Both the position numbers and the translations under genes were made by a program. A DNA stretch of 25,299 bases from a virus (lineage: Duplodnaviria; Caudoviricetes), in IMG/VR virus record IMGVR_UViG_3300020043_002358, positions 1 through 25,299 of that record; one strand, written 5' to 3'. The notes under the pieces were generated by a model. That model did no database searches, had not been told where the DNA came from, and saw only the letters and a program-made list of their open reading frames with translations. Shown here piece by piece: positions 1 through 22,318 of the stretch. How positions within the stretch are numbered: the first letter of the stretch is position 1; every line of letters starts with the position of its first letter.

Positions 1-39
1 GCCCCTGCTTGAGGGCATTAGATAATAGGAGGCAACAAA

Positions 40-171
40 ATGAATGATTGTAAGCACGAATTAGCGAGACGAACTAGAGTAATCCCTACCCGTGCAGGGG
101 TAGTGACAGAACAATTTCTGCTTTGCTACTACTGTTCAGAAGAGTTTGACATAGATGAGGAGGCAAAATGA
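40..171 (+). CDS. 43-aa Cys/His microprotein (MNDCKH...CYYC...EEFDIDEEAK)
   Basis: Translated by hand; AGGAGG SD at 27-32; stop overlaps next ATG (ATGA). Confidence 0.75.
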   Translation: MNDCKHELARRTRVIPTRAGVVTEQFLLCYYCSEEFDIDEEAK

Positions 172-284
172 ATACTAAATGCATACAATGTGGAAAAGAA
201 GTTGATTTGCTTGTGGCGTTCACCGCTCACAAGATTTGTGGAAAATGTACGAGGGCTAACCATAGAAAGGTGGCTGGAAAATGA
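168..284 (+). CDS. 38-aa zinc-finger microprotein (CIQC...CGKC)
   Basis: Hand translation; AGGAGG SD at 158-163; ATGA overlaps at both ends; two CxxC motifs. Confidence 0.8.
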   Translation: MNTKCIQCGKEVDLLVAFTAHKICGKCTRANHRKVAGK

Positions 285-400
285 TACGGGTGCAGACTAA
301 AGCAAAATGTAGTGAATGTAATCGGATATTTGATTTGCTTGATGAGACACAAGCAGAGGAGTGGTATTACGGGCACGATTGTGAAGGAGGTGAGCAGTAA
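281..400 (+). CDS. 39-aa Cys-rich microprotein (CSEC...GHDC)
   Basis: Hand translation; ATGA overlap at start, TAATG overlap at end. Confidence 0.75.
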   Translation: MIRVQTKAKCSECNRIFDLLDETQAEEWYYGHDCEGGEQ

Positions 401-603
401 TGTTGGAGAACGGATTAGGTGACAGCCTATACTTTCAGATTTGGTATTCACTATCGCAAGGATTTGTGATAGATGTGTACCCTTTCGTGCAGGTACAGGT
501 AAGTAACACGCTTATCGTATCCGCTTTAGCGATGATTGTAGCGTTGCGTGTGCGTAAAGTTCTACGAGATAAGAAAGGTAACAAGTGGACAAGTTTGCGA
601 TAG
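400..603 (+). CDS. Small membrane protein
   Basis: GGAGGTG SD; hydrophobic stretch LIVSALAMIVAL followed by basic tail. Confidence 0.65.
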   Translation: MLENGLGDSLYFQIWYSLSQGFVIDVYPFVQVQVSNTLIVSALAMIVALRVRKVLRDKKGNKWTSLR

Positions 604-770
604 TCGTGGCTATGGGTGAGTACACACTCACTCATACGGGCGGTGAGTTAGGTGAGGTTAGGTTGCGTGACGAGTGGCTGGATTATGTTATCGTGCGTGA
701 CGATACTACGGTAACCGATTTGGTTGCTGGATTACGGGAAGCAATAGTGAAAGATAAGGAGACAAGATGA
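585..770 (+). CDS. Hypothetical early protein (GTG start)
   Basis: ORF track; AAGGT SD; ends KETR across next RBS. Confidence 0.7.
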   Translation: MDKFAIVVAMGEYTLTHTGGELGEVRLRDEWLDYVIVRDDTTVTDLVAGLREAIVKDKETR

Positions 771-955
771 TGTTTGACAATAGCACAAGATTAGTGAACG
801 CTAATCATAAGGTGAACAGCAAAGCAGATGAATTATCAAGAGCACTAAATAGATTAGGTAGCCCTAGAGAAGGTGCTGGTGATTTTGATTTGGTTATCAA
901 GATTATCGGCGAGTTGCTTGTGGCTAAAGCGGAGCGTGACCAATGGCAAGATTAG
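767..955 (+). CDS. Hypothetical early protein
   Basis: AGGAGACAA RBS; ATGA overlap. Confidence 0.75.
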   Translation: MMFDNSTRLVNANHKVNSKADELSRALNRLGSPREGAGDFDLVIKIIGELLVAKAERDQWQD

Positions 956-1125
956 GAGAAGCATACACACTCCTCTTGTGGGAGTTTTCAAGAGACGGCA
1001 GACAATCAGGCATAGATTATGAGGTGTTCAAAAATAATCTGATTGACGAATACAAAATAGATGAGACACAGTTGAATAGTCTTGCTGGCGAATTGCTTGC
1101 AAGGTACAGTAAGGAGACAAGATAA
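943..1125 (+). CDS. Hypothetical early protein
   Basis: GGAG SD; ends KETR; TAATG overlap with next gene. Confidence 0.7.
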   Translation: MARLGEAYTLLLWEFSRDGRQSGIDYEVFKNNLIDEYKIDETQLNSLAGELLARYSKETR

Positions 1126-1292
1126 TGTACGCTGAGCACGGATTGTGTGAAGAGACAAGAGATGAGTGCCGACCAATTCTGCTTGACGAGTTGGTGGTAG
1201 ACACAGATTGCGAAGGTTGTAATCGTTATGTGTGTTTAGATTGTGGGCAAGATGTGGATTTGGAACAACTAACAGAGGAGACAACAAAATGA
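1125..1292 (+). CDS. 55-aa acidic zinc-binding microprotein (CEGC-x4-CLDC)
   Basis: Hand translation; AGGAGACAA RBS at 1112-1120; overlaps at both ends. Confidence 0.8.
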   Translation: MYAEHGLCEETRDECRPILLDELVVDTDCEGCNRYVCLDCGQDVDLEQLTEETTK

Positions 1293-1423
1293 AAATAAGT
1301 CAGGATAGTTTTTATTGGTCAGAGTTGGCTGAACTAACTCACGATACGCAGGTGCAGATTTTCGGTTGGTGTGCTTGTGAGGATAGTGACAAGGTGTATG
1401 CCGATTGTCCAGACACGCCGTGA
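1289..1423 (+). CDS. 44-aa Cys-containing microprotein (MKISQDSFYW...WCACED...DCP)
   Basis: Start moved from 1232 to ATG 1289 behind AGGAGACAA RBS. Confidence 0.75.
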   Translation: MKISQDSFYWSELAELTHDTQVQIFGWCACEDSDKVYADCPDTP

Positions 1424-1481
1424 TTTGACAAATGAAAACAAGTAATGTAGAAAAGGTTTGTGGCTAGAAGGTCTAGGCACA
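1412..1481 (+). promoter_or_regulatory. Putative sigma70-type early promoter with upstream GACACGCCG box and 5' stem-loop
   Basis: TTGACA 1425-1430, 17-bp spacer, weak -10 TAGAAA 1448-1453; hairpin TGTG-g-CTAGA-agg-TCTAG-g-CACA 1459-1481; only real intergenic gap in the early region. Confidence 0.55.
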
Positions 1482-1505
1482 GAAGATAAAAGGAGACAAA
1501 ACAAA

Positions 1506-1754
1506 ATGAGTGACATAACAAAAGTAGAAAAGCAAATAGGTTACTTACAACTATTGAAAGAAGAACAAGACATTATCTGTTTTGTTTGGGTAAAAGAAGA
1601 CGCAGAACAAATCACAGAACAATCTCTTACAGATGAAGAGTGGTCTAACCTTGCGTACACTATTACCCGTAAAGCAGATTGGATTTACAACGAGATGGCA
1701 GAAGAGATTACTGAAAGACTACAACTAATGAGAGAAGAGAAGGAGACAAAGTAA
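1506..1754 (+). CDS. Hypothetical protein, LTDE(E/Q)W paralog 1
   Basis: Start moved to ATG 1506 behind AGGAGACAA; similar to next gene. Confidence 0.8.
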   Translation: MSDITKVEKQIGYLQLLKEEQDIICFVWVKEDAEQITEQSLTDEEWSNLAYTITRKADWIYNEMAEEITERLQLMREEKETK

Positions 1755-1981
1755 TGAAAGCACAAGACGCAATCAAATGGCTAAGCGAGTATGACCCTGA
1801 ACAGGAAATCATTATCGCTTGGTGGGATAAAGAAACTACGGGATACGATTTGACAGATGAACAATGGGCAACTGTCATTGAGGAAGTAGATAAGAGAGCA
1901 TGGTGTTGGGAAGCAGTAACTGACGCTATTGACGATAGTGTTGGAGAGTTAGAGAACAATACAGATGAGGAGACAAACTAA
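1754..1981 (+). CDS. Hypothetical protein, LTDE(E/Q)W paralog 2
   Basis: AGGAGACAA RBS; TAATG overlaps. Confidence 0.8.
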   Translation: MKAQDAIKWLSEYDPEQEIIIAWWDKETTGYDLTDEQWATVIEEVDKRAWCWEAVTDAIDDSVGELENNTDEETN

Positions 1982-2172
1982 TGAGCAAAGATACAAGCAG
2001 AGAGCCAATAGTAACTATTACTTGGTGTGCATTGGACTTGATGAACGAGTACGGATACTCAGAGGAAAAGGCAACTGAGGTGCTAGAAAACATAGCCTCT
2101 TCTTTAGAGGATAGAAGTATTGAACTTGGTTGGCAAGTTATTGAAACGCTTATTTCTGAAGAGGAAGAATAG
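1981..2172 (+). CDS. Hypothetical acidic protein
   Basis: AGGAGACAA RBS; TAATG overlap. Confidence 0.8.
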   Translation: MSKDTSREPIVTITWCALDLMNEYGYSEEKATEVLENIASSLEDRSIELGWQVIETLISEEEE

Positions 2173-2180
2173 GAAAAGAA

Positions 2181-2444
2181 ATGAACAAGACAGAACAACT
2201 ACTAAATCAAGCAACTGTGTTACTGGATAATCAGATGAACTTGATTGAACAACTTAGAGCAATACGGATAGATAAAGGATTTACTCAGGAAGAAGTTGGT
2301 GAGCGTATGGGCGTTACGAAACAAAAGGTTGTACGCTTTGAAACAGTATCGGATACTGTAACTCTTTCTATGCTTAGGCGTTACGCTTTAGCGATTGGGG
2401 TAACTATCAACTTTCAAGTAACTAATAATAAGGAGAACAACTAA
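2181..2444 (+). CDS. XRE/Cro-like helix-turn-helix DNA-binding protein
   Basis: LRAIRIDKGFTQEEVGERMGVTKQKVVRFE...TLSMLRRYALAIG is a classic HTH_3 pattern. Confidence 0.9.
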   Translation: MNKTEQLLNQATVLLDNQMNLIEQLRAIRIDKGFTQEEVGERMGVTKQKVVRFETVSDTVTLSMLRRYALAIGVTINFQVTNNKENN

Positions 2445-2644
2445 TGATGGGTAGATACGATACACAAAAGAAATGGGAACAACTAGCAAGAGATTACACA
2501 CAACTAGCGTATGGACATAAGAAGTTTACGCAGGCTGTGCAGTTAGGTATGGCAATGGCAACACTAACAGAGGAGCAAATGCTGTCTCTTGTTGAAACAA
2601 CTGAACGCTGGCTGGAACAAGCAAAGGAGAAGAACAATGTTTAG
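2444..2644 (+). CDS. Hypothetical protein
   Basis: AGGAG SD; TAATG overlap. Confidence 0.75.
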   Translation: MMGRYDTQKKWEQLARDYTQLAYGHKKFTQAVQLGMAMATLTEEQMLSLVETTERWLEQAKEKNNV

Positions 2645-2783
2645 TATTGCAGAGGTGGATACTATCCTTGTAGCGTTGAAGTATTACGCTGACAATGGTG
2701 GAGATAAGGAAACGATTGACGGGTTGAACGAGAAGTTCAATGCGTGGCTTGTGTGGACATCTATTGTAGGAGAAGAACAATGA
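2637..2783 (+). CDS. Hypothetical 48-aa protein (MFSIAEVDT...)
   Basis: Start moved to ATG 2637 behind AGGAGAAGAACA. Confidence 0.7.
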   Translation: MFSIAEVDTILVALKYYADNGGDKETIDGLNEKFNAWLVWTSIVGEEQ

Positions 2784-2905
2784 AATGTCAGGGCTGTAAT
2801 GTAACCTTTGAAGCAGTTGATGAAATAGAACTATGCCACTACTGTTATTGCAATGAGGCACAGGATAAAACAAGTCCATTACATTTACTGTTAGGAGTAT
2901 CGTAA
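2780..2905 (+). CDS. 41-aa zinc-finger microprotein (CQGC...CHYC)
   Basis: Hand translation; AGGAG SD; ATGA overlap; two CxxC. Confidence 0.8.
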   Translation: MKCQGCNVTFEAVDEIELCHYCYCNEAQDKTSPLHLLLGVS

Positions 2906-2907
2906 TT

Positions 2908-3105
2908 ATGAGAGTGTTAGCAACTAAAGCAAAATACTATGATGTGTATGAGGTGCGAGAAACAATCGCAGAACTCAACAACATACCTGTTGAAGATGTG
3001 CTGGAAGAAGAAGCAATTAGTTTGATTTGGAAGTTTGTTGCTGAGGATTTTGGTGACCTTGACAATGTTGAGTTGGTTGATGATGAAGGGAACTTTGTAA
3101 GATAA
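2908..3105 (+). CDS. Hypothetical acidic protein
   Basis: AGGAG SD; ORF track. Confidence 0.75.
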   Translation: MRVLATKAKYYDVYEVRETIAELNNIPVEDVLEEEAISLIWKFVAEDFGDLDNVELVDDEGNFVR

Positions 3106-3263
3106 TGGATAAGGAACAGATAACACAGGAACTGATTGCTTACACAAAAGAAATGGCTGGAGATTATTACCACTCATACCTTTCAGGTATGCTGTTTGCA
3201 ATCCTTACTGATGAACAATGGAAGTATCTTGAAAACAAAATCTTGAAGGATGTGTTGCTATGA
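3105..3263 (+). CDS. 52-aa hypothetical protein (contains LTDEQW)
   Basis: Hand translation; TAATG and ATGA overlaps. Confidence 0.7.
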   Translation: MDKEQITQELIAYTKEMAGDYYHSYLSGMLFAILTDEQWKYLENKILKDVLL

Positions 3264-3406
3264 TAGTTTGCAAAAAGTGTGATGATGTTCTCTACACCAA
3301 CACAATGCCTGAAGGTTCAGACGAAATAGTGTATGTGCTATGCGAGAGTTGTTCACGCTCATACACAATGACAATCACAATCACAGAGGAGATAATCCTA
3401 GTATGA
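3260..3406 (+). CDS. 48-aa zinc-ribbon microprotein (CKKC...CESC)
   Basis: Hand translation; ATGA overlaps at both ends. Confidence 0.75.
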   Translation: MIVCKKCDDVLYTNTMPEGSDEIVYVLCESCSRSYTMTITITEEIILV

Positions 3407-3729
3407 GAAAACCAATAGAAGATTTCTTGGAAGCGTTTAAACAGCGTCTCTCTAGGGATTGGATACAGCAGGCGAACTGTGCAGAAATGTGGGAAGAGTT
3501 TGACATAGATGAGGACAAGGAAAGTGATGTGTCTATCTACAAGCGTAGGACTTTACAGAAGATTTGTGACGCTTGCCCTGTCAAACAAGAATGTTTAGAT
3601 GACGCATTGTTCTACTCTGAGGAATACACTTTCCGTGCAGGAATGATGCCTAGTGAACGCAAAAGGTTGATGACAGAGTTAGGTATCCCTACTTGGGAAC
3701 AGAAACAGAAAGCGTTACGCAATGGTTGA
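3403..3729 (+). CDS. whiB: WhiB-family Fe-S transcription factor
   Basis: DW...ANC...ICDACPVKQECLDDAL...AGMMPSERKRL (four Cys); start moved to ATG 3403 behind GAGGAG. Confidence 0.9.
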   Translation: MRKPIEDFLEAFKQRLSRDWIQQANCAEMWEEFDIDEDKESDVSIYKRRTLQKICDACPVKQECLDDALFYSEEYTFRAGMMPSERKRLMTELGIPTWEQKQKALRNG

Positions 3730-3832
3730 AACAATACTTGTAGGATTTATTGTATGGTTTGCAGGTAAATGGATTATCTCTGAACGGGAAGCACGATACT
3801 ACAAGAAACTTGTGCAACGGAAGATAAAATGA
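3722..3832 (+). CDS. 36-aa single-pass membrane protein
   Basis: Hand translation MVETILVGFIVWFAGKW...; fills the gap with overlaps. Confidence 0.6.
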   Translation: MVETILVGFIVWFAGKWIISEREARYYKKLVQRKIK

Positions 3833-4134
3833 GAAGCAGAAAGAAAGAAGTTCAGGAACTTGTCACGATACTGGATAATCCACACGATAGTGTGGAAGAT
3901 TTAGCCGAAGAGATTTGGGTGAAGGTTGATGAGTTCCGTAGGGTAAGGGAAGCGTGGGCTGTGATTGTGAGACAAGAACAACTCATCTTCCTTTACGGAC
4001 TGTACGATACTGAGAACTCTGCCCGTAAAGATTTGGAAAAATACAGGGCAGTAACCAAAAACAATCAGGCTATGATTACTAAAGTGTTATCCCCTTCCGC
4101 CCTATGGGGCGGAGAGTTATTGGATTATAAATAA
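3829..4134 (+). CDS. Hypothetical protein
   Basis: ORF track; ATGA overlap; last gene before the intergenic region. Confidence 0.8.
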   Translation: MRSRKKEVQELVTILDNPHDSVEDLAEEIWVKVDEFRRVREAWAVIVRQEQLIFLYGLYDTENSARKDLEKYRAVTKNNQAMITKVLSPSALWGGELLDYK

Positions 4135-4194
4135 CCATAACTGGTGAACAGTATTATACTGGAAAAATTGTTTGAAGAAAGGATTTGGTCTTGC

Positions 4195-4250
4195 GACACG
4201 CCGAACAATTTGAAAAAGAATTGTGTCACCTAGTGTGGTACAATAATCCT
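4195..4250 (+). promoter_or_regulatory. Putative extended -10 promoter for the candidate sRNA and replication operon, with GACACGCCG box
   Basis: TGgTACAAT 4236-4244; GACACGCCG 4195-4203; no correctly spaced -35. Confidence 0.65.
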
Positions 4251-4335
4251 GTCGGGATTTGTCTCCCCTGACAGGCTTGGGTGGGTTGAACTCCTTGACG
4301 GATTGTCTCCCCTGATAGTAGAGTTCCCCACCCAA
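4248..4335 (+). ncRNA. Candidate two-hairpin anti-RBS small RNA or leader with UUGUCUCC loops
   Basis: Stem 1 CCTGTCGGG/CCTGACAGG (4248-4256 with 4267-4275); stem 2 TTGGGTGGG/CCCACCCAA plus GAACTC/GAGTTC; TTGTCTCCCCTGA repeated at 4259-4271 and 4303-4315; complementary to phage RBS motif. Confidence 0.7.
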
Positions 4336-4370
4336 TAGGTTTGAATAACTAAAAGCGAAAGGAAAAGCAA

Positions 4371-4586
4371 GTGAGCAAGTTGATGATAGACGGGTACGAG
4401 TTACCCGACTATGCTTCCTACTCTAGCCTTACAACGTGGCTGGATTGTGGGTGGCAGTATGTACTAACAAGGGCAGTGAAAGTTCCTGAACTACCTGCGT
4501 GGTACTTTATCGGTGGCACAACTCTCCATGAGGTGACGGAACACTTGGATAACGAGTGGTTCAACAAACAGAGAGGAGAAGCGTGA
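4371..4586 (+). CDS. N-terminal part of split Cas4/AddB-like PD-(D/E)XK exonuclease
   Basis: SYSSLTTWLDCGWQY...GTTLHEVTE matches the N-terminal motif of RecB/Cas4-like nucleases; GAAAGGA SD, GTG start. Confidence 0.8.
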   Translation: MSKLMIDGYELPDYASYSSLTTWLDCGWQYVLTRAVKVPELPAWYFIGGTTLHEVTEHLDNEWFNKQRGEA

Positions 4587-5242
4587 ACATAGAAAACCTA
4601 TGGTCAGATACCTTCAATGCCCTAAAGTATGCTCAGATTGAAGCACAGGGCTTTACAGAGGCACAAGTACGCACCTCTGGTAGGGCAACGAAGGAGTATC
4701 CAAACAAGGAGAACGACACTTGGTGGATGGCTAACGGAACTAAGATGGTTGAGTCTTGGGTACGCTGGCGTGACAACTCAGGTTGGGGAATAGCCGACAT
4801 GGGTCAAGGCAACCCTGGAATTGAGTTGCCTATCACCATCAGTCTTGGTGGTGTTGATGTGAAGATGGTGATTGACAGGGTGATGTTTAAACCATCTGAG
4901 ACTGGTGTTCTAACCCGTGAGGACTACATTGTGTTAGACCTCAAGACAGGACGCTATGCACCTAAGTCTGAAATGCAGTTGGCTTTGTATGCGACAGGCA
5001 TTGAGATGGTGTACGGGTTCAGACCTAAGTGGGGTACATACTGGATGGCAAGGGAAGGGCAACCTTCACCCATGCTAGACCTAGATAAGTATCCGACTAG
5101 CATGTTTGAGGACTTGTTCTCTAAGTTCCAGACAGCGAGAGAGAACGGCGTGTTTCTGCCCAATCTCAACCACTGTTCAATGTGCAGTGTGATAGACTAT
5201 TGTAAATACAAACAACCAACTCTTTGGGAGATAAAGAAATGA
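4583..5242 (+). CDS. C-terminal catalytic part of PD-(D/E)XK exonuclease
   Basis: E...IDRV...DLKTG...QLALYA and C-terminal CSMC-x5-C; start moved to GTG 4583 (AGGAG SD, GTGA overlap). Confidence 0.85.
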   Translation: MNIENLWSDTFNALKYAQIEAQGFTEAQVRTSGRATKEYPNKENDTWWMANGTKMVESWVRWRDNSGWGIADMGQGNPGIELPITISLGGVDVKMVIDRVMFKPSETGVLTREDYIVLDLKTGRYAPKSEMQLALYATGIEMVYGFRPKWGTYWMAREGQPSPMLDLDKYPTSMFEDLFSKFQTARENGVFLPNLNHCSMCSVIDYCKYKQPTLWEIKK

Positions 5243-5735: not shown

Positions 5736-5753
5736 CCAATTTTTAGGAGATAA

Positions 5754-6536
5754 ATGAAAACATTAGGTAGAGCAGTAGGGAAACCTGACATTGGTGGCGA
5801 ACCACTACCGTCAGTGTTCAACACCTTCGCTCAAAACAACATTGTGATACGCAGAAGTGAAGTGTCAATGATTGCTGGTGCACCAGGTGCAGGTAAATCA
5901 ACGATTGCTTTAGCGATAGCGTTACGAAGTCAAGTACCAACCCTGTATGTGTCAGCAGATACGAACGCACACACTATGGCTATGCGTTTGTACTCTATGA
6001 TTACAGGTAAGTCACAGCGAGAATCAGAAGTGATACTTTCCGAACGACCCGAAGAGGCACGACAAGTATTATCTATGACGAACCACATTTTCTGGTCATT
6101 TGATTCGTCACCTAACCTTGACGATTTAGATGAAGAAGTCTCTGCGTTCGAGGAAATTTGGGGTGAATCACCAGCGTTGATTGTGGTTGATAACCTTATG
6201 GATGTCGCTATGGATGGTGGTGAAGAGTTCGGTGGCATGAGGGCTGCAATGAAAGAGTTAAAGTTTCTAGCCCGTGACACCAACGCTGCACTACTAGTGC
6301 TACACCATACGAAGGAGTCTTACAACGGTGACCCTTGCCCACCACGCTCAGCAGTACAGGGCATGGTGAACCAGTTACCTGCACTCATCCTCACATTAGG
6401 ATTGACAGCGAACAACATGTTGGGTGTTGCCTCTGTGAAGAACCGTTACGGTAAAGCAGACCCATCAGGTAACAGTCCTGTATGGTTACAGTTCAACGGT
6501 GAGTTCATGTACATTAGTGATACGGAAATCAGATGA
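5754..6536 (+). CDS. DnaB/RecA-fold ATPase (replicative helicase-like)
   Basis: Walker A GAPGAGKS, Walker B LIVVD, LLVLHH, KNRYG arginine finger. Confidence 0.9.
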   Translation: MKTLGRAVGKPDIGGEPLPSVFNTFAQNNIVIRRSEVSMIAGAPGAGKSTIALAIALRSQVPTLYVSADTNAHTMAMRLYSMITGKSQRESEVILSERPEEARQVLSMTNHIFWSFDSSPNLDDLDEEVSAFEEIWGESPALIVVDNLMDVAMDGGEEFGGMRAAMKELKFLARDTNAALLVLHHTKESYNGDPCPPRSAVQGMVNQLPALILTLGLTANNMLGVASVKNRYGKADPSGNSPVWLQFNGEFMYISDTEIR

Positions 6537-7049: not shown

Positions 7050-7144
7050 GTTGGATACATGACACACCTGACATGGACTTTTGGGAGTCAATAGATTTTA
7101 TTAATCTCAATGTGGCAGAAGAGGATGAGGAGACAGATGAATAA
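7046..7144 (+). CDS. 32-aa acidic peptide
   Basis: Hand translation MSWIHDTPDMDFWESIDF...; strong GGAGG SD. Confidence 0.55.
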   Translation: MSWIHDTPDMDFWESIDFINLNVAEEDEETDE

Positions 7145-9001: not shown

Positions 9002-9177
9002 TGGCAACCTACGTGTACAACTGTCGCACCTGCCAAATCTTTCAAGAGATTGTCAGGTCAATGCACGATATTGAAATCCTACCAGCATGCGAATCCTGTG
9101 GGGAACTCATGAAACGTGTATACTCACCTGCACCAGTGAAGTTCAACGCTCCTGGTTTCTACACGACAGGTGGATGA
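9001..9177 (+). CDS. FmdB-family zinc-ribbon protein (58 aa)
   Basis: Hand translation MATYVYNCRTC...CESCGELMKRVYS...FNAPGFYTTGG. Confidence 0.9.
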   Translation: MATYVYNCRTCQIFQEIVRSMHDIEILPACESCGELMKRVYSPAPVKFNAPGFYTTGG

Positions 9178-9557
9178 TGAGCAAAACCAAACATCCAATA
9201 GCAGTAATCCTTGAACACTACGGTGCTAAGATACCGTTGGGTACAGGATGGATGAAGATACGTTGCCCTTTTCATGGTGATAGCCATGCTAGTGCAACAG
9301 TGAACACAGAAATCAATGCGTTTAAATGTTTCGCTTGCGAAGTAAGCGGAGACACTTATGGTATAATTATGAAACATGAAAGGAAAACATTCCATGAGGC
9401 ATACACTCTCGCAGAAGAAGTCACTGGAATCAGCGGTGACACACTATCAGAGATTCATAGGGCAGGCAGAGGAGTATCTAGCAAGCAGAGGTCTAACTCT
9501 GCAAGACGTGGATATACACCGCCTAGGGGTCGTAGACGAACCACTACCAGGTCATGA
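9174..9557 (+). CDS. DNA primase zinc-binding (CHC2) domain protein
   Basis: CPFHGDSHAS...FKCFAC...GD; start moved to ATG 9174 or 9177. Confidence 0.9.
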   Translation: MMSKTKHPIAVILEHYGAKIPLGTGWMKIRCPFHGDSHASATVNTEINAFKCFACEVSGDTYGIIMKHERKTFHEAYTLAEEVTGISGDTLSEIHRAGRGVSSKQRSNSARRGYTPPRGRRRTTTRS

Positions 9558-10008
9558 AAACTATAAGGGTAGGCTAGTTATCCCTTATCTCACGAAGACA
9601 GGTGTAGTGGATATACGGTTCAGGGCTATGGGTGAATCAGATGTCAAATATCTAGGGTTGCCTGGTGCCAAGACACATCTGTACAATGTGCTATCAACGT
9701 TCAATGCACAGGATGCTATCGCTGTGTGCGAAGGTGAGATAGATACCATCACTCTCAACAAGTGTGGCATCCCATCGGTGGGTGTGCCTGGTGTCAACAA
9801 CTGGAAGAAACATTACACCCGTATCTTGCAGGACTTTGAAACAGTGTATGTGTTCGCTGACGGTGACCAGCCTGGTACAGATTTTGCTAAGAACCTTGCC
9901 CGTGAACTATCCACTGTGACGGTTATCCAAATGCCTGACGGTGAGGATGTGAACAGTGTATACTGCAAGGGTGGACCGAACGCTATACGTCAACGGATAG
10001 GACTATAA
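9394..10008 (+). CDS. DNA primase catalytic TOPRIM domain protein
   Basis: YLASRGL...RLVIPY...VCEGEID...ADGDQPG...EDVN; AAAGGA SD before ATG 9394. Confidence 0.9.
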   Translation: MRHTLSQKKSLESAVTHYQRFIGQAEEYLASRGLTLQDVDIHRLGVVDEPLPGHENYKGRLVIPYLTKTGVVDIRFRAMGESDVKYLGLPGAKTHLYNVLSTFNAQDAIAVCEGEIDTITLNKCGIPSVGVPGVNNWKKHYTRILQDFETVYVFADGDQPGTDFAKNLARELSTVTVIQMPDGEDVNSVYCKGGPNAIRQRIGL

Positions 10009-20807: not shown

Positions 20808-20906
20808 TTATTCTACTACTTCGTCCTCTACTTCTCGTATTTCGACAATATTATTGTTTGGTTTTGTTGAATCGTATCCGCCAATACCATATGTGACTAT
20901 TTGCAT
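20808..20906 (-). CDS. 32-aa peptide ([22 protein letters not shown]...), possible fibre accessory
   Basis: TAATG overlap with the collagen gene stop; trimmed from ORF 20808..21116. Confidence 0.65.
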   Translation of the reverse strand: MQIVTYGIGGYDSTKPNNNIVEIREVEDEVVE

Positions 20907-22318
20907 TACGAAACCCTCACCCAGCAACAAGGAATATTGCCTGTTTCTCTTGCCAATGTTCCAGCAGTAGCGAAAGCACCAGTAACACCTGTTTGTGACC
21001 AAGCATTTGCTCTTTGATTTGCGAAACCACCTTGCCTCATTAAACCTAAAGGAAATGCTGTATTGCCTAAAAATGTATTTGTTGTGCCAGCGGTTTGCAT
21101 ATTGAATGCTAACCAATACCAGCCCTGATTTAAAGATTGATTTATAGTAATTTCATATCCAGTTGATGCAGCAGTAGGGTTCACCGTACCTGCATCTAAA
21201 ACAACTGTTGAAGGTTTACCTGTCGTGTTATCGTAAATACCTAAACGAACAGTTGCTGAACCAGCAAATGTTGAACCGGTAATACAACCAATTCTTACCC
21301 AACTACTATTCGATGGCACAAAGAATGGTTGATAATAAGTTACATCTTCTGTTACAGTCGCATTAGCAAAGTTTGCTGTTGCTGCCATTGTGTAGTAGAT
21401 ACCAGTTTCAACATCAAATACAGCTGCCGCACCAGTAGGTCCAGTAGGTCCTGACGGTCCAGTAGGTCCTGACGGTCCACTTGGACCTGTAGGTCCTGTT
21501 GCACCTACTGCTCCTGCAGGTCCAGTTGGACCTGTAGGACCCTCAGCACCTGCAGGTCCAGTTGGACCTGTGGCTCCAATAGCACCAGTTGCACCCGTAG
21601 GCCCTGTAGGGCCTGTAGCACCTGCTGTGCCTGTCGCACCCGTAGGACCCGTTGGACCAGCCACACCAGCAGGTCCAGTCGCTCCAGTAGGCCCTGTAGG
21701 GCCTGTAACAGTGCTTGCAGCACCAGTAGCACCAGTAGGACCTGTCGGTCCAGTAGCACCCACAGCCCCAGTTGGTCCAGTAGGACCAGCATCACCCTGT
21801 ACACCCTGCGGACCAGTCGGGCCAGTTGCACCTGTCGGTCCAGTAGGACCCGTCACAGTGGATGCTGCACCTGTAGGCCCCGTTGGGCCTGTGGCACCAA
21901 TAGCACCAGTCGGCCCTGTCGGACCTGTATTACCAATCGAACCAGTAGGTCCTGTCGGACCAGTGTCACCAGCAGGACCTGTAGGTCCTGTAACCGTAGA
22001 AGCAGCCCCAGTTGGGCCAGTCGGCCCAGTAGGGCCAGTATCGCCCTGTGGCCCAGTAGGGCCAGTGACAGTACTAGCGGCACCCGTAGGACCAGTCGGG
22101 CCAGTAGCCCCGATAGGTCCAGTCGGACCAGTCACGGTAGAAGCAGCACCAGTGGGTCCAGTAGGACCCGTAGCCCCAACAGAACCAGTAGGACCAGTGG
22201 GTCCTTGAATACCCTGCGGACCCTGAAGGTTAGACATCACCACATCAAAAGAAGAACCAGCAGTGAACACAACCTCAAAAGTAGAACCATCAGTTACGTC
22301 AACAACAAAGTCACTCAT
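20906..22318 (-). CDS. Collagen-like (Gly-Pro-Thr) fibre protein with C-terminal globular domain
   Basis: Roughly 260 aa of G-X-Y repeats dominated by GPT. Confidence 0.92.
21431..22222 (-). repeat. Degenerate 9-bp tandem repeat encoding collagen triplets
   Basis: GGNCCNACN repeats with synonymous variation. Confidence 0.9.

Follow-up and report, generated by a model that had tools for sequence, protein, structure and literature searches.

Gene layout of the window

The window, meaning the whole stretch of DNA that was analysed, is a linear virus record of 25.3 kb with a completeness of 63%. Short early genes occupy positions 1-4134 of the plus strand and are followed 3′ by a replication module comprising a split exonuclease, a gp49-like gene, a DnaB helicase, a methylase, a primase and a sigma factor (Pfam, PHROG), while the structural genes are found on the minus strand. 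Since a WhiB-like protein is encoded and the helicase shares 60% identity with the helicases of two cultured 'Ca. Planktophila' phages (source: PMC10202952), the host of this phage is likely an actinobacterium. Gene starts were taken from a simple, purpose-made caller. A small share of the reads from one RNA run gave coverage confined to 4521-4926 of the window. The two genes closest to the argument below are:

3403 to 3729, plus strand: WhiB-like gene, 108 aa (Pfam PF02467, E 1.8e-9; PHROG WhiB families)
4371 to 4586, plus strand: N-terminal part of the split exonuclease (PHROG exonuclease), the first gene 3′ of the predicted RNA

The exonuclease consists of two overlapping ORFs, 4371-4586 and 4583-5242, both matching the same PHROG families; the split also occurs in relatives, in some of which a gene sits between the two parts. 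The primase is likewise made of two overlapping ORFs, 9087-9557 (zinc finger) and 9376-10008 (Toprim). A gene with collagen-like repeats (G-X-Y, period of 9 nt) at 20906-22318 of the minus strand probably encodes a tail fibre.

A predicted two-hairpin RNA 5′ of the exonuclease gene

The segment 4245-4360 folds with -40.7 kcal/mol (z -3.35) into two adjacent hairpins, and the fold model predicts a phage RNA of two hairpins from about 4248 or 4251 to 4335. Its features are as follows.

4236 to 4244, plus strand: extended -10 promoter-like site (TG-N-TACAAT), predicted start near 4251, -35 match absent
4248 to 4275, plus strand: hairpin 1 (fold prediction), loop 4257-4266, with TTGTCTCC at 4259-4266
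4277 to 4335, plus strand: hairpin 2, with a lower stem, a 2-nt bulge (4286-4287), an upper stem and a 27-nt weakly paired tip carrying TTGTCTCC at 4303-4310

Both hairpin loops contain UUGUCUCC. The -10 site was missed by a consensus promoter scan, which requires a -35. A promoter at this position, as an earlier note on this DNA had proposed, is nevertheless supported by its constant spacing in relatives: in the window and in the related loci L209 and L210 the same first stem starts 7 nt after the -10. The counterpart of hairpin 1 in L209 and L210 has a different loop sequence. No terminator was found 3′ of hairpin 2 in the window, so the RNA could either exist as a free small RNA or form the 5′ leader of the replication operon. 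Searches with Rfam gave no match in the window at gathering score, nothing relevant in 4100-4450 at E up to 10, nothing in 13 relatives, and only tRNAs and one abiF match in 15 further loci. An exact twin-loop pattern scan gave at least 121 stretches, with no relatives among them and no protein match in L001-L120, and a scan with the hairpin 1 pattern gave at least 120.

The loops are complementary to shared early ribosome sites

Both loops are complementary over 8 nt to GGAGACAA, which serves six early genes as ribosome site. This motif has six plus-strand copies in the window, every one 5′ of an early start codon, and its complement is confined to the two hairpin loops. Sites matched by the loops are listed below.

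28 to 35, plus strand: early ribosome site GGAGGCAA, gene at 40, loop match with one G.U
159 to 166, plus strand: second copy of GGAGGCAA, gene at 168, loop match with one G.U
758 to 765, plus strand: early ribosome site GGAGACAA, gene at 767, 8-nt complement of both loops
1113 to 1120, plus strand: early ribosome site GGAGACAA, gene at 1125
1277 to 1284, plus strand: early ribosome site GGAGACAA, gene at 1289, the second match of the earlier note
1492 to 1499, plus strand: early ribosome site GGAGACAA, gene at 1506
1742 to 1749, plus strand: early ribosome site GGAGACAA, gene at 1754
1969 to 1976, plus strand: early ribosome site GGAGACAA, gene at 1981
3384 to 3398, plus strand: whiB ribosome-binding region, longest predicted duplex with loop 2, within the last codons of ORF 3260-3406
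5226 to 5235, plus strand: ribosome site of the gp49-like gene, loop match with one G.U, -9.2 kcal/mol
5746 to 5755, plus strand: helicase ribosome site, loop match with one G.U, -11.3 kcal/mol
7129 to 7138, plus strand: DNA methylase ribosome site, start 7137, 10-nt match to loop 1, predicted target at -13.7 kcal/mol

Six early genes are matched perfectly and nine when wobble pairs are counted, whiB being among the nine. When the costs of opening both RNAs were included, the best pairings were those of whiB (-13.9 kcal/mol), the methylase (-13.7) and gene 1506 (-13.0), with gene 1125 at -12.7 and gene 767 at -12.3 kcal/mol. Scores of -8 kcal/mol or better, opening costs included, were reached by 9/19 early starts compared with 3/19 downstream starts. 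With the loops alone scored, all six GGAGACAA sites rank above whiB. The strong signal is the common 8-nt match to six early sites and not the extra length at whiB.

The earlier note had singled out that extra length. Its pairing of 3384-3398 with 4300-4314 at 14 of 15 positions (one A.C mismatch, one G.U) was reproduced, sequences and coordinates included, as was the 11 of 12 pairing of 1273-1284 with the same loop 2 segment. Among ungapped 15-nt windows of both strands, 3384 was the sole non-self site with 14 pairs, four others reaching 13, and in a ranking of all 25-nt windows by duplex energy the whiB site was the best non-self site (-21.8 vs -18.6 kcal/mol for the next). The start codon at 3403 also held, with a Pfam WhiB match (PF02467) and a first Met aligned with that of three relatives; the alternative starts further upstream, 3340 and 3349, fall within the ORF before it and lack a ribosome site. 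When flanks were randomised in 2000 trials, the best early site reached -21.8 in 1.05% (GGAGA kept, 10 sites) or 5.05% (GGAGAYA kept, 7 sites), figures that allow neither for the 15-mer having been picked after the fact nor for any of the sites being able to be best. Because of these chance figures, the additional duplex length at whiB is just mildly unusual. The claim that whiB is the best target stood in that whiB came first of 38 plus-strand starts with opening costs included, but its margin over the next three sites was just 0.2-1.2 kcal/mol.

The loop follows the early motif of its own phage

Relative loci were collected through similarity of the exonuclease, helicase and WhiB proteins, and in these the loop was found to change with the early ribosome-site motif of the same phage. 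Loop core and early motif were, respectively, TCATCCTTTC and GAAAGGATGA in L122, TTATTCTCCT and AGGAGAATAA in L209, TTTCACCTC and GAGGTGAAA in L211, and CTCCATTT and AAATGGAG in both L159 and L180. In a swap test with 16 lineages, which amount to fewer than 16 independent cases because they were hand-picked after the folds and, for several, the matches had been viewed and because some are close kin, every lineage had its own loop in first or second place among the 16 when these were matched to its early sites. The mean perfect run was 6.35 nt for own and 5.11 nt for swapped loops, with 8-nt matches at 27% versus 5% (permutation p < 1e-4). This mean of 27% of called early starts with a perfect 8-nt match includes three lineages with none (L128, L164, L423 same strand). 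For downstream genes the loop signal was much weaker than for early sites, with mean runs of 5.10 nt own and 4.85 nt swapped (p 0.03, 0.008 and 0.08 by three measures); downstream genes matching their own loop numbered 4/19 in L121 and 5/13 in L122.

Two procedures were less dependent on selection by eye. An automated rule for pyrimidine-rich hairpin loops within 330 nt 5′ of the exonuclease gene identified such loops in 34 of 128 non-identical related loci, a count that misses L121, L128 and L153 and admits a few doubtful cases. In a blind test, hairpins were located irrespective of loop content in 155 non-redundant loci, and at least four own sites were matched in 11/224 strand sets, compared with 0.28% of 6521 swapped sets. 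Eight of these 11 high-scoring sets lie within about 510 nt 5′ of the exonuclease gene; two of the 11 are near duplicates and one is a GC-rich locus that probably scored by chance. The blind test missed L122, L211 and L212, and 204 of the 224 sets scored 2 or less.

The cultured Planktophila phage F5 (OX376641) belongs to the related phages whose loop tracks the own early ribosome-site motif. Its hairpin lies 5′ of the exonuclease gene and its early genes are on the opposite strand, where the loop matches 8 of 25 called starts by at least 8 nt; the site of the adjacent exonuclease gene matches the loop as well, and no loop match was found at whiB of F5. Since the opposite-strand targets cannot share the transcript of the RNA, action in trans is favoured. 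Because unannotated sites gave a background in opposite-strand scoring (13/223 sets scored 3-5), F5, with a score of 8, was the sole opposite-strand case used.

Anti-site hairpins were also seen away from the border between early and replication genes, at L134:4853, L206:14771 and 13939, L152:12710 and L430:2905. A different hairpin, in whose stem a GGAG-type run pairs with its complement, lies beside a WhiA box directly 5′ of the exonuclease gene in L186-L207, and possibly controls that gene in cis.

A conserved bulged hairpin in other phages

Hairpin 2 has a conserved shape, consisting of a lower stem, a 2-nt bulge and an upper stem beginning GA, and this bulged shape was found with compensatory base changes in 9/9 loci examined. 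Stems were counted from the bulge as an anchor, since the sequences of 18 hairpins aligned too poorly to build a covariance model from them. A search of 1.86 Mb by shape alone returned 13 bulged hairpins, 11 of them with the anti-ribosome-site core, and two control shapes returned 0 and 0 in the same sequence. With the C/U core imposed on the bulged-hairpin pattern, 63 viral stretches were obtained, among which were many unrelated phages with full hairpins. The swap test, the blind test and the search by shape alone led us to reject chance as the origin of the loop match.

In Mycobacterium phage Rockstar the loop matches 4/48 leftward gene starts by 8-10 nt and 0/29 rightward ones. The hairpin of this phage, with the same bulge, lies between genes 2 and 3 (L574:1200-1255), the matched ribosome sites are those of genes 39, 47, 48 and 49 on the other strand, and the surrounding 700 nt have matches in 228 Mycobacterium phage records. 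The same bulged hairpin was seen at L524:1447-1491, 5′ of tRNA genes of Rhodococcus phages (RER2, CosmicSans; 45 records). Four phages unrelated by the proteins tested (L525, L561, L563 and L573) have the same two-hairpin layout behind a -10-like site near 5950-6035, and their opposite-strand genes frequently show a GGAGAC or GGAGAT site suited to loop 1.

Proposed action of the RNA

Complementarity, folding potential, compensatory changes in the stems and a loop that changes with the own early motif were each observed. Since loop and sites change together in relatives, the RNA likely turns the early genes down as a group, and a trans-acting anti-ribosome-site RNA that would damp the early genes together is the explanation we favour, with a probability of about 0.62. 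Firing of the replication-gene promoter at 4236-4244 would start plus-strand transcription from about 4251, the loops of the RNA would pair in trans with the shared early ribosome sites in the cell, and translation of the target genes would be lowered as a group, at a time set by the promoter. The RNA would not be a clean early-only switch, because the methylase, helicase and gp49-like genes, downstream genes of L121 and L122 and the F5 exonuclease match too; the weaker helicase, methylase and gp49-like matches make a rheostat more plausible than a clean switch. The main result is an anti-ribosome-site RNA family of which whiB is a clade-limited target, and feedback through WhiB would be side wiring in this clade.

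The whiB link and the WhiA/WhiB box

The earlier note had proposed that phage WhiB activates the 4236-4244 promoter and that whiB translation is in turn repressed by the RNA, so that a timed pulse results. With host WhiA as partner of phage WhiB, this circuit is compatible with the trans-acting RNA and adds one wiring step to it; we regard it as possible and rather doubtful. A feature absent from the earlier note bears on it, namely putative WhiA/WhiB boxes at two places:

1412 to 1419, plus strand: second WhiA box, just upstream of TTGACA at 1425-1430, within the early region
4194 to 4203, plus strand: WhiA/WhiB2 consensus box CGACACGCCG, 44 nt upstream of the -10, putative binding site by sequence match

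The WhiA/WhiB2 consensus is given as GACACGCC / CGACACGCCG in PMC13473873. Its 8-mer has two copies in the window, at 1412 and 4195, the latter (GACACGCC, 4195-4202) upstream of the -35 position. According to PMC10243135, WhiA binds the motif and WhiB bridges to sigma, and the two co-activate from a site upstream of -35. The full box upstream of the promoter lends independent support to the feedback premise. As at WhiA/WhiB(2)-activated promoters, a consensus box lies upstream of a promoter without a good -35; unlike at those, the site is in a phage, and the phage WhiB is divergent.

In related loci the 8-mer was found within 300 nt 5′ of the exonuclease gene in 50/126, against 0.55 expected. 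The full WhiA/WhiB2 box occurs 5′ of the replication operon in many relatives, whether the hairpin is present or not. Of 22 hairpin lineages, 8 have the box upstream of the first loop (5 of them at 70 nt or less), 3 have it downstream and 11 lack it, and for this reason the box is tied to the replication promoter more than to the RNA. A box no more than 70 nt from the first loop and a whiB site for which the own loop is best of 18 co-occur in the window, L128 and L210, and this favours the WhiB circuit, as does the first rank of whiB among 38 starts. The box is also a separate lead, as these phages appear to hook their replication promoter to host cell-division regulators.

Several points stand against the circuit. 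WhiA, which reads the box, comes from the host, whose WhiB2 could act at the box as well. Phage WhiB of TM4 is reported to lower whiB2 expression (PMC6282962), i.e. to repress rather than activate, and repression by WhiA is described as about as frequent as activation (PMC3781837). The four cysteines of phage WhiB (C26, C55, C58, C64) are invariant in 4/4 aligned proteins, but the G[V/I]WGG motif after the last cysteine, described as otherwise universal in WhiB-like (Wbl) proteins, is missing; the window has TFRAG at this place and two relatives have GFRAG. Because the final codons of the upstream ORF 3260-3406 contain the whiB site, with an ATGA overlap, translationally coupled ribosomes may bypass a block at whiB. 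The phage also encodes a sigma factor.

The window, L128, L209 and L210 form a clade of phage WhiB proteins with [TG]FRAG replacing G[V/I]WGG. An alignment search with whiB gave no new close relative in the viral collection, and a search of genome contigs gave 3 distant matches.

Lineage comparisons limited the whiB link further. For 5 of 18 lineages (window, L128, L210, L147 and L179) the whiB site paired best with the own loop out of 18. An early set was available for 16 lineages, and in 3 of these whiB came first among the early genes of its phage. Co-variation of loop and whiB site, which the earlier note had suggested checking across related phages, gave p 0.018 for all 18 lineages and p 0.16 without the window. 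The four closest phages showed it, with p 0.043, which is the minimum attainable with four, but the 14 distant ones did not (p 0.62), and whiB as a special, conserved target is not supported. For L121, L122, L407 and L153 the whiB rows are uncertain because the whiB start has no clear ribosome site. Within the closest clade the whiB site is matched in 3/4; in the close relative L209 it pairs weakly (-8.0), below all six early sites scored. As the main target of the family, whiB was rejected by the lineage co-variation test. In the closest clade it belongs to the predicted target set, the simplest reason being that this early gene has the common motif too, and a WhiB feedback could work solely in this phage and its closest kin.

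Other explanations

The hairpins might instead act in cis only, as leader or terminator of the exonuclease operon, with the loop match reflecting a general style of ribosome site. Such a role would fit the lack of a terminator after hairpin 2, the matching site of the adjacent gene in F5, and L211, L357 and L164, where the early operon ends with the hairpin, which precedes the box. It is unlikely, however, given that the ribosome site of the adjoining exonuclease gene at 4371 pairs poorly with the loops in the window (-4.8 kcal/mol), that early sites match far better than downstream ones, and that matches fall on the other strand in F5 (eight) and Rockstar (four).

Also unlikely is that the opposite strand is the active one, as a decoy that displays GGAGACAA in its loops and soaks up protein or ribosomes, or that the loops are DNA sites. 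A decoy would produce the same co-variation, and both hairpins of the window are slightly more stable when folded from the opposite strand. However, plus-strand -10-like sites point into the hairpins at constant distance, and in 33 hairpins G.U pairs number 34 on the anti-site strand versus 13 on the other; the anti-site strand has the better fold in 23/33 hairpins and in 0/2 of the window's.

A general anti-Shine-Dalgarno RNA aimed mainly at host messages, as the C/U core of every loop and its complementarity to common ribosome sites would allow (compare the cuckoo and 6C RNAs), is similarly improbable, since the bases flanking the core track the own early motif of each phage.

Comparison with known systems

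Loops of the 6C RNAs carry runs of about six C. The longest C run in the window RNA is four, and RF01066 had no match in the record itself, with a control that was detected in just 1 of 14 genomes, below the cut-off; membership of the 6C family was rejected on the C run and the missing RF01066 match. The likeness lies elsewhere: 6C RNA (RF01066), as described in PMC6486639, has hairpins with C-rich loops that pair with many ribosome-binding regions without Hfq or ProQ, a precedent for chaperone-free loop pairing in actinobacteria, the phylum of the likely host of this phage. The window RNA differs in being phage-encoded and in having U/C 8-10-mer loops that vary between phages and track their own early sites.

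The cuckoo and ar14 RNAs of Alphaproteobacteria resemble the window RNA in their adjacent hairpins and repeated anti-Shine-Dalgarno loops, the stems of cuckoo RNAs being variable according to PMC4615179. Two to four adjacent hairpins are typical of cuckoo RNAs, and the window RNA has two. Cuckoo RNAs differ, in the same account, in their fixed loops (CCUCCUCCC) and chromosomal location in Alphaproteobacteria. Membership was rejected, CCUCCUCCC being absent from both loops, which carry UUGUCUCC.

How lytic phages without a RegB-like nuclease stop early protein synthesis is poorly known, and an RNA loop that changes with the shared early ribosome site of each phage would be a compact answer to early shut-off. 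In purpose the RNA resembles T4 RegB, reported to shut early phage messages via GGAG ribosome sites (PMC1702504). RegB is a protein nuclease, whereas the site reader of the window is a predicted RNA, with no cleavage implied. No description of a phage RNA co-varying with its own early sites was found in the mostly open-access literature; the accessible main text of PMC10690425 has no passage on such an RNA, and its supplements, with 10,000 candidate viral RNAs, may list the motif.

On the target side, the early motif resembles the start-associated sequences (SAS) of cluster K mycobacteriophages, described in PMC3203893 as a repeated extended ribosome site 5′ of non-structural genes, for which that paper raises an RNA or protein partner and mentions one opposite-orientation copy in four phages. 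The window similarly has six motif copies before early starts and two reversed copies in the loops; it differs in that its early sites depart from the 13-nt SAS consensus. An RNA of this kind would make testable what reads the actinophage SAS, a question left open in PMC3203893, and the question can be tested now because the same kind of hairpin is present in the cultured Planktophila phage F5 and in the Mycobacterium smegmatis phage Rockstar. A wider picture, which we put forward as speculation and hold doubtful as a whole, is that many phages tag their early-gene class with a private ribosome-site extension that is read and silenced by a modular hairpin RNA; in the present clade WhiA and phage WhiB would switch this RNA on and whiB would be silenced too, giving a negative feedback timer, and the module, which is also carried by cultured phages of Planktophila, Mycobacterium and Rhodococcus, would be a candidate for the missing SAS partner.
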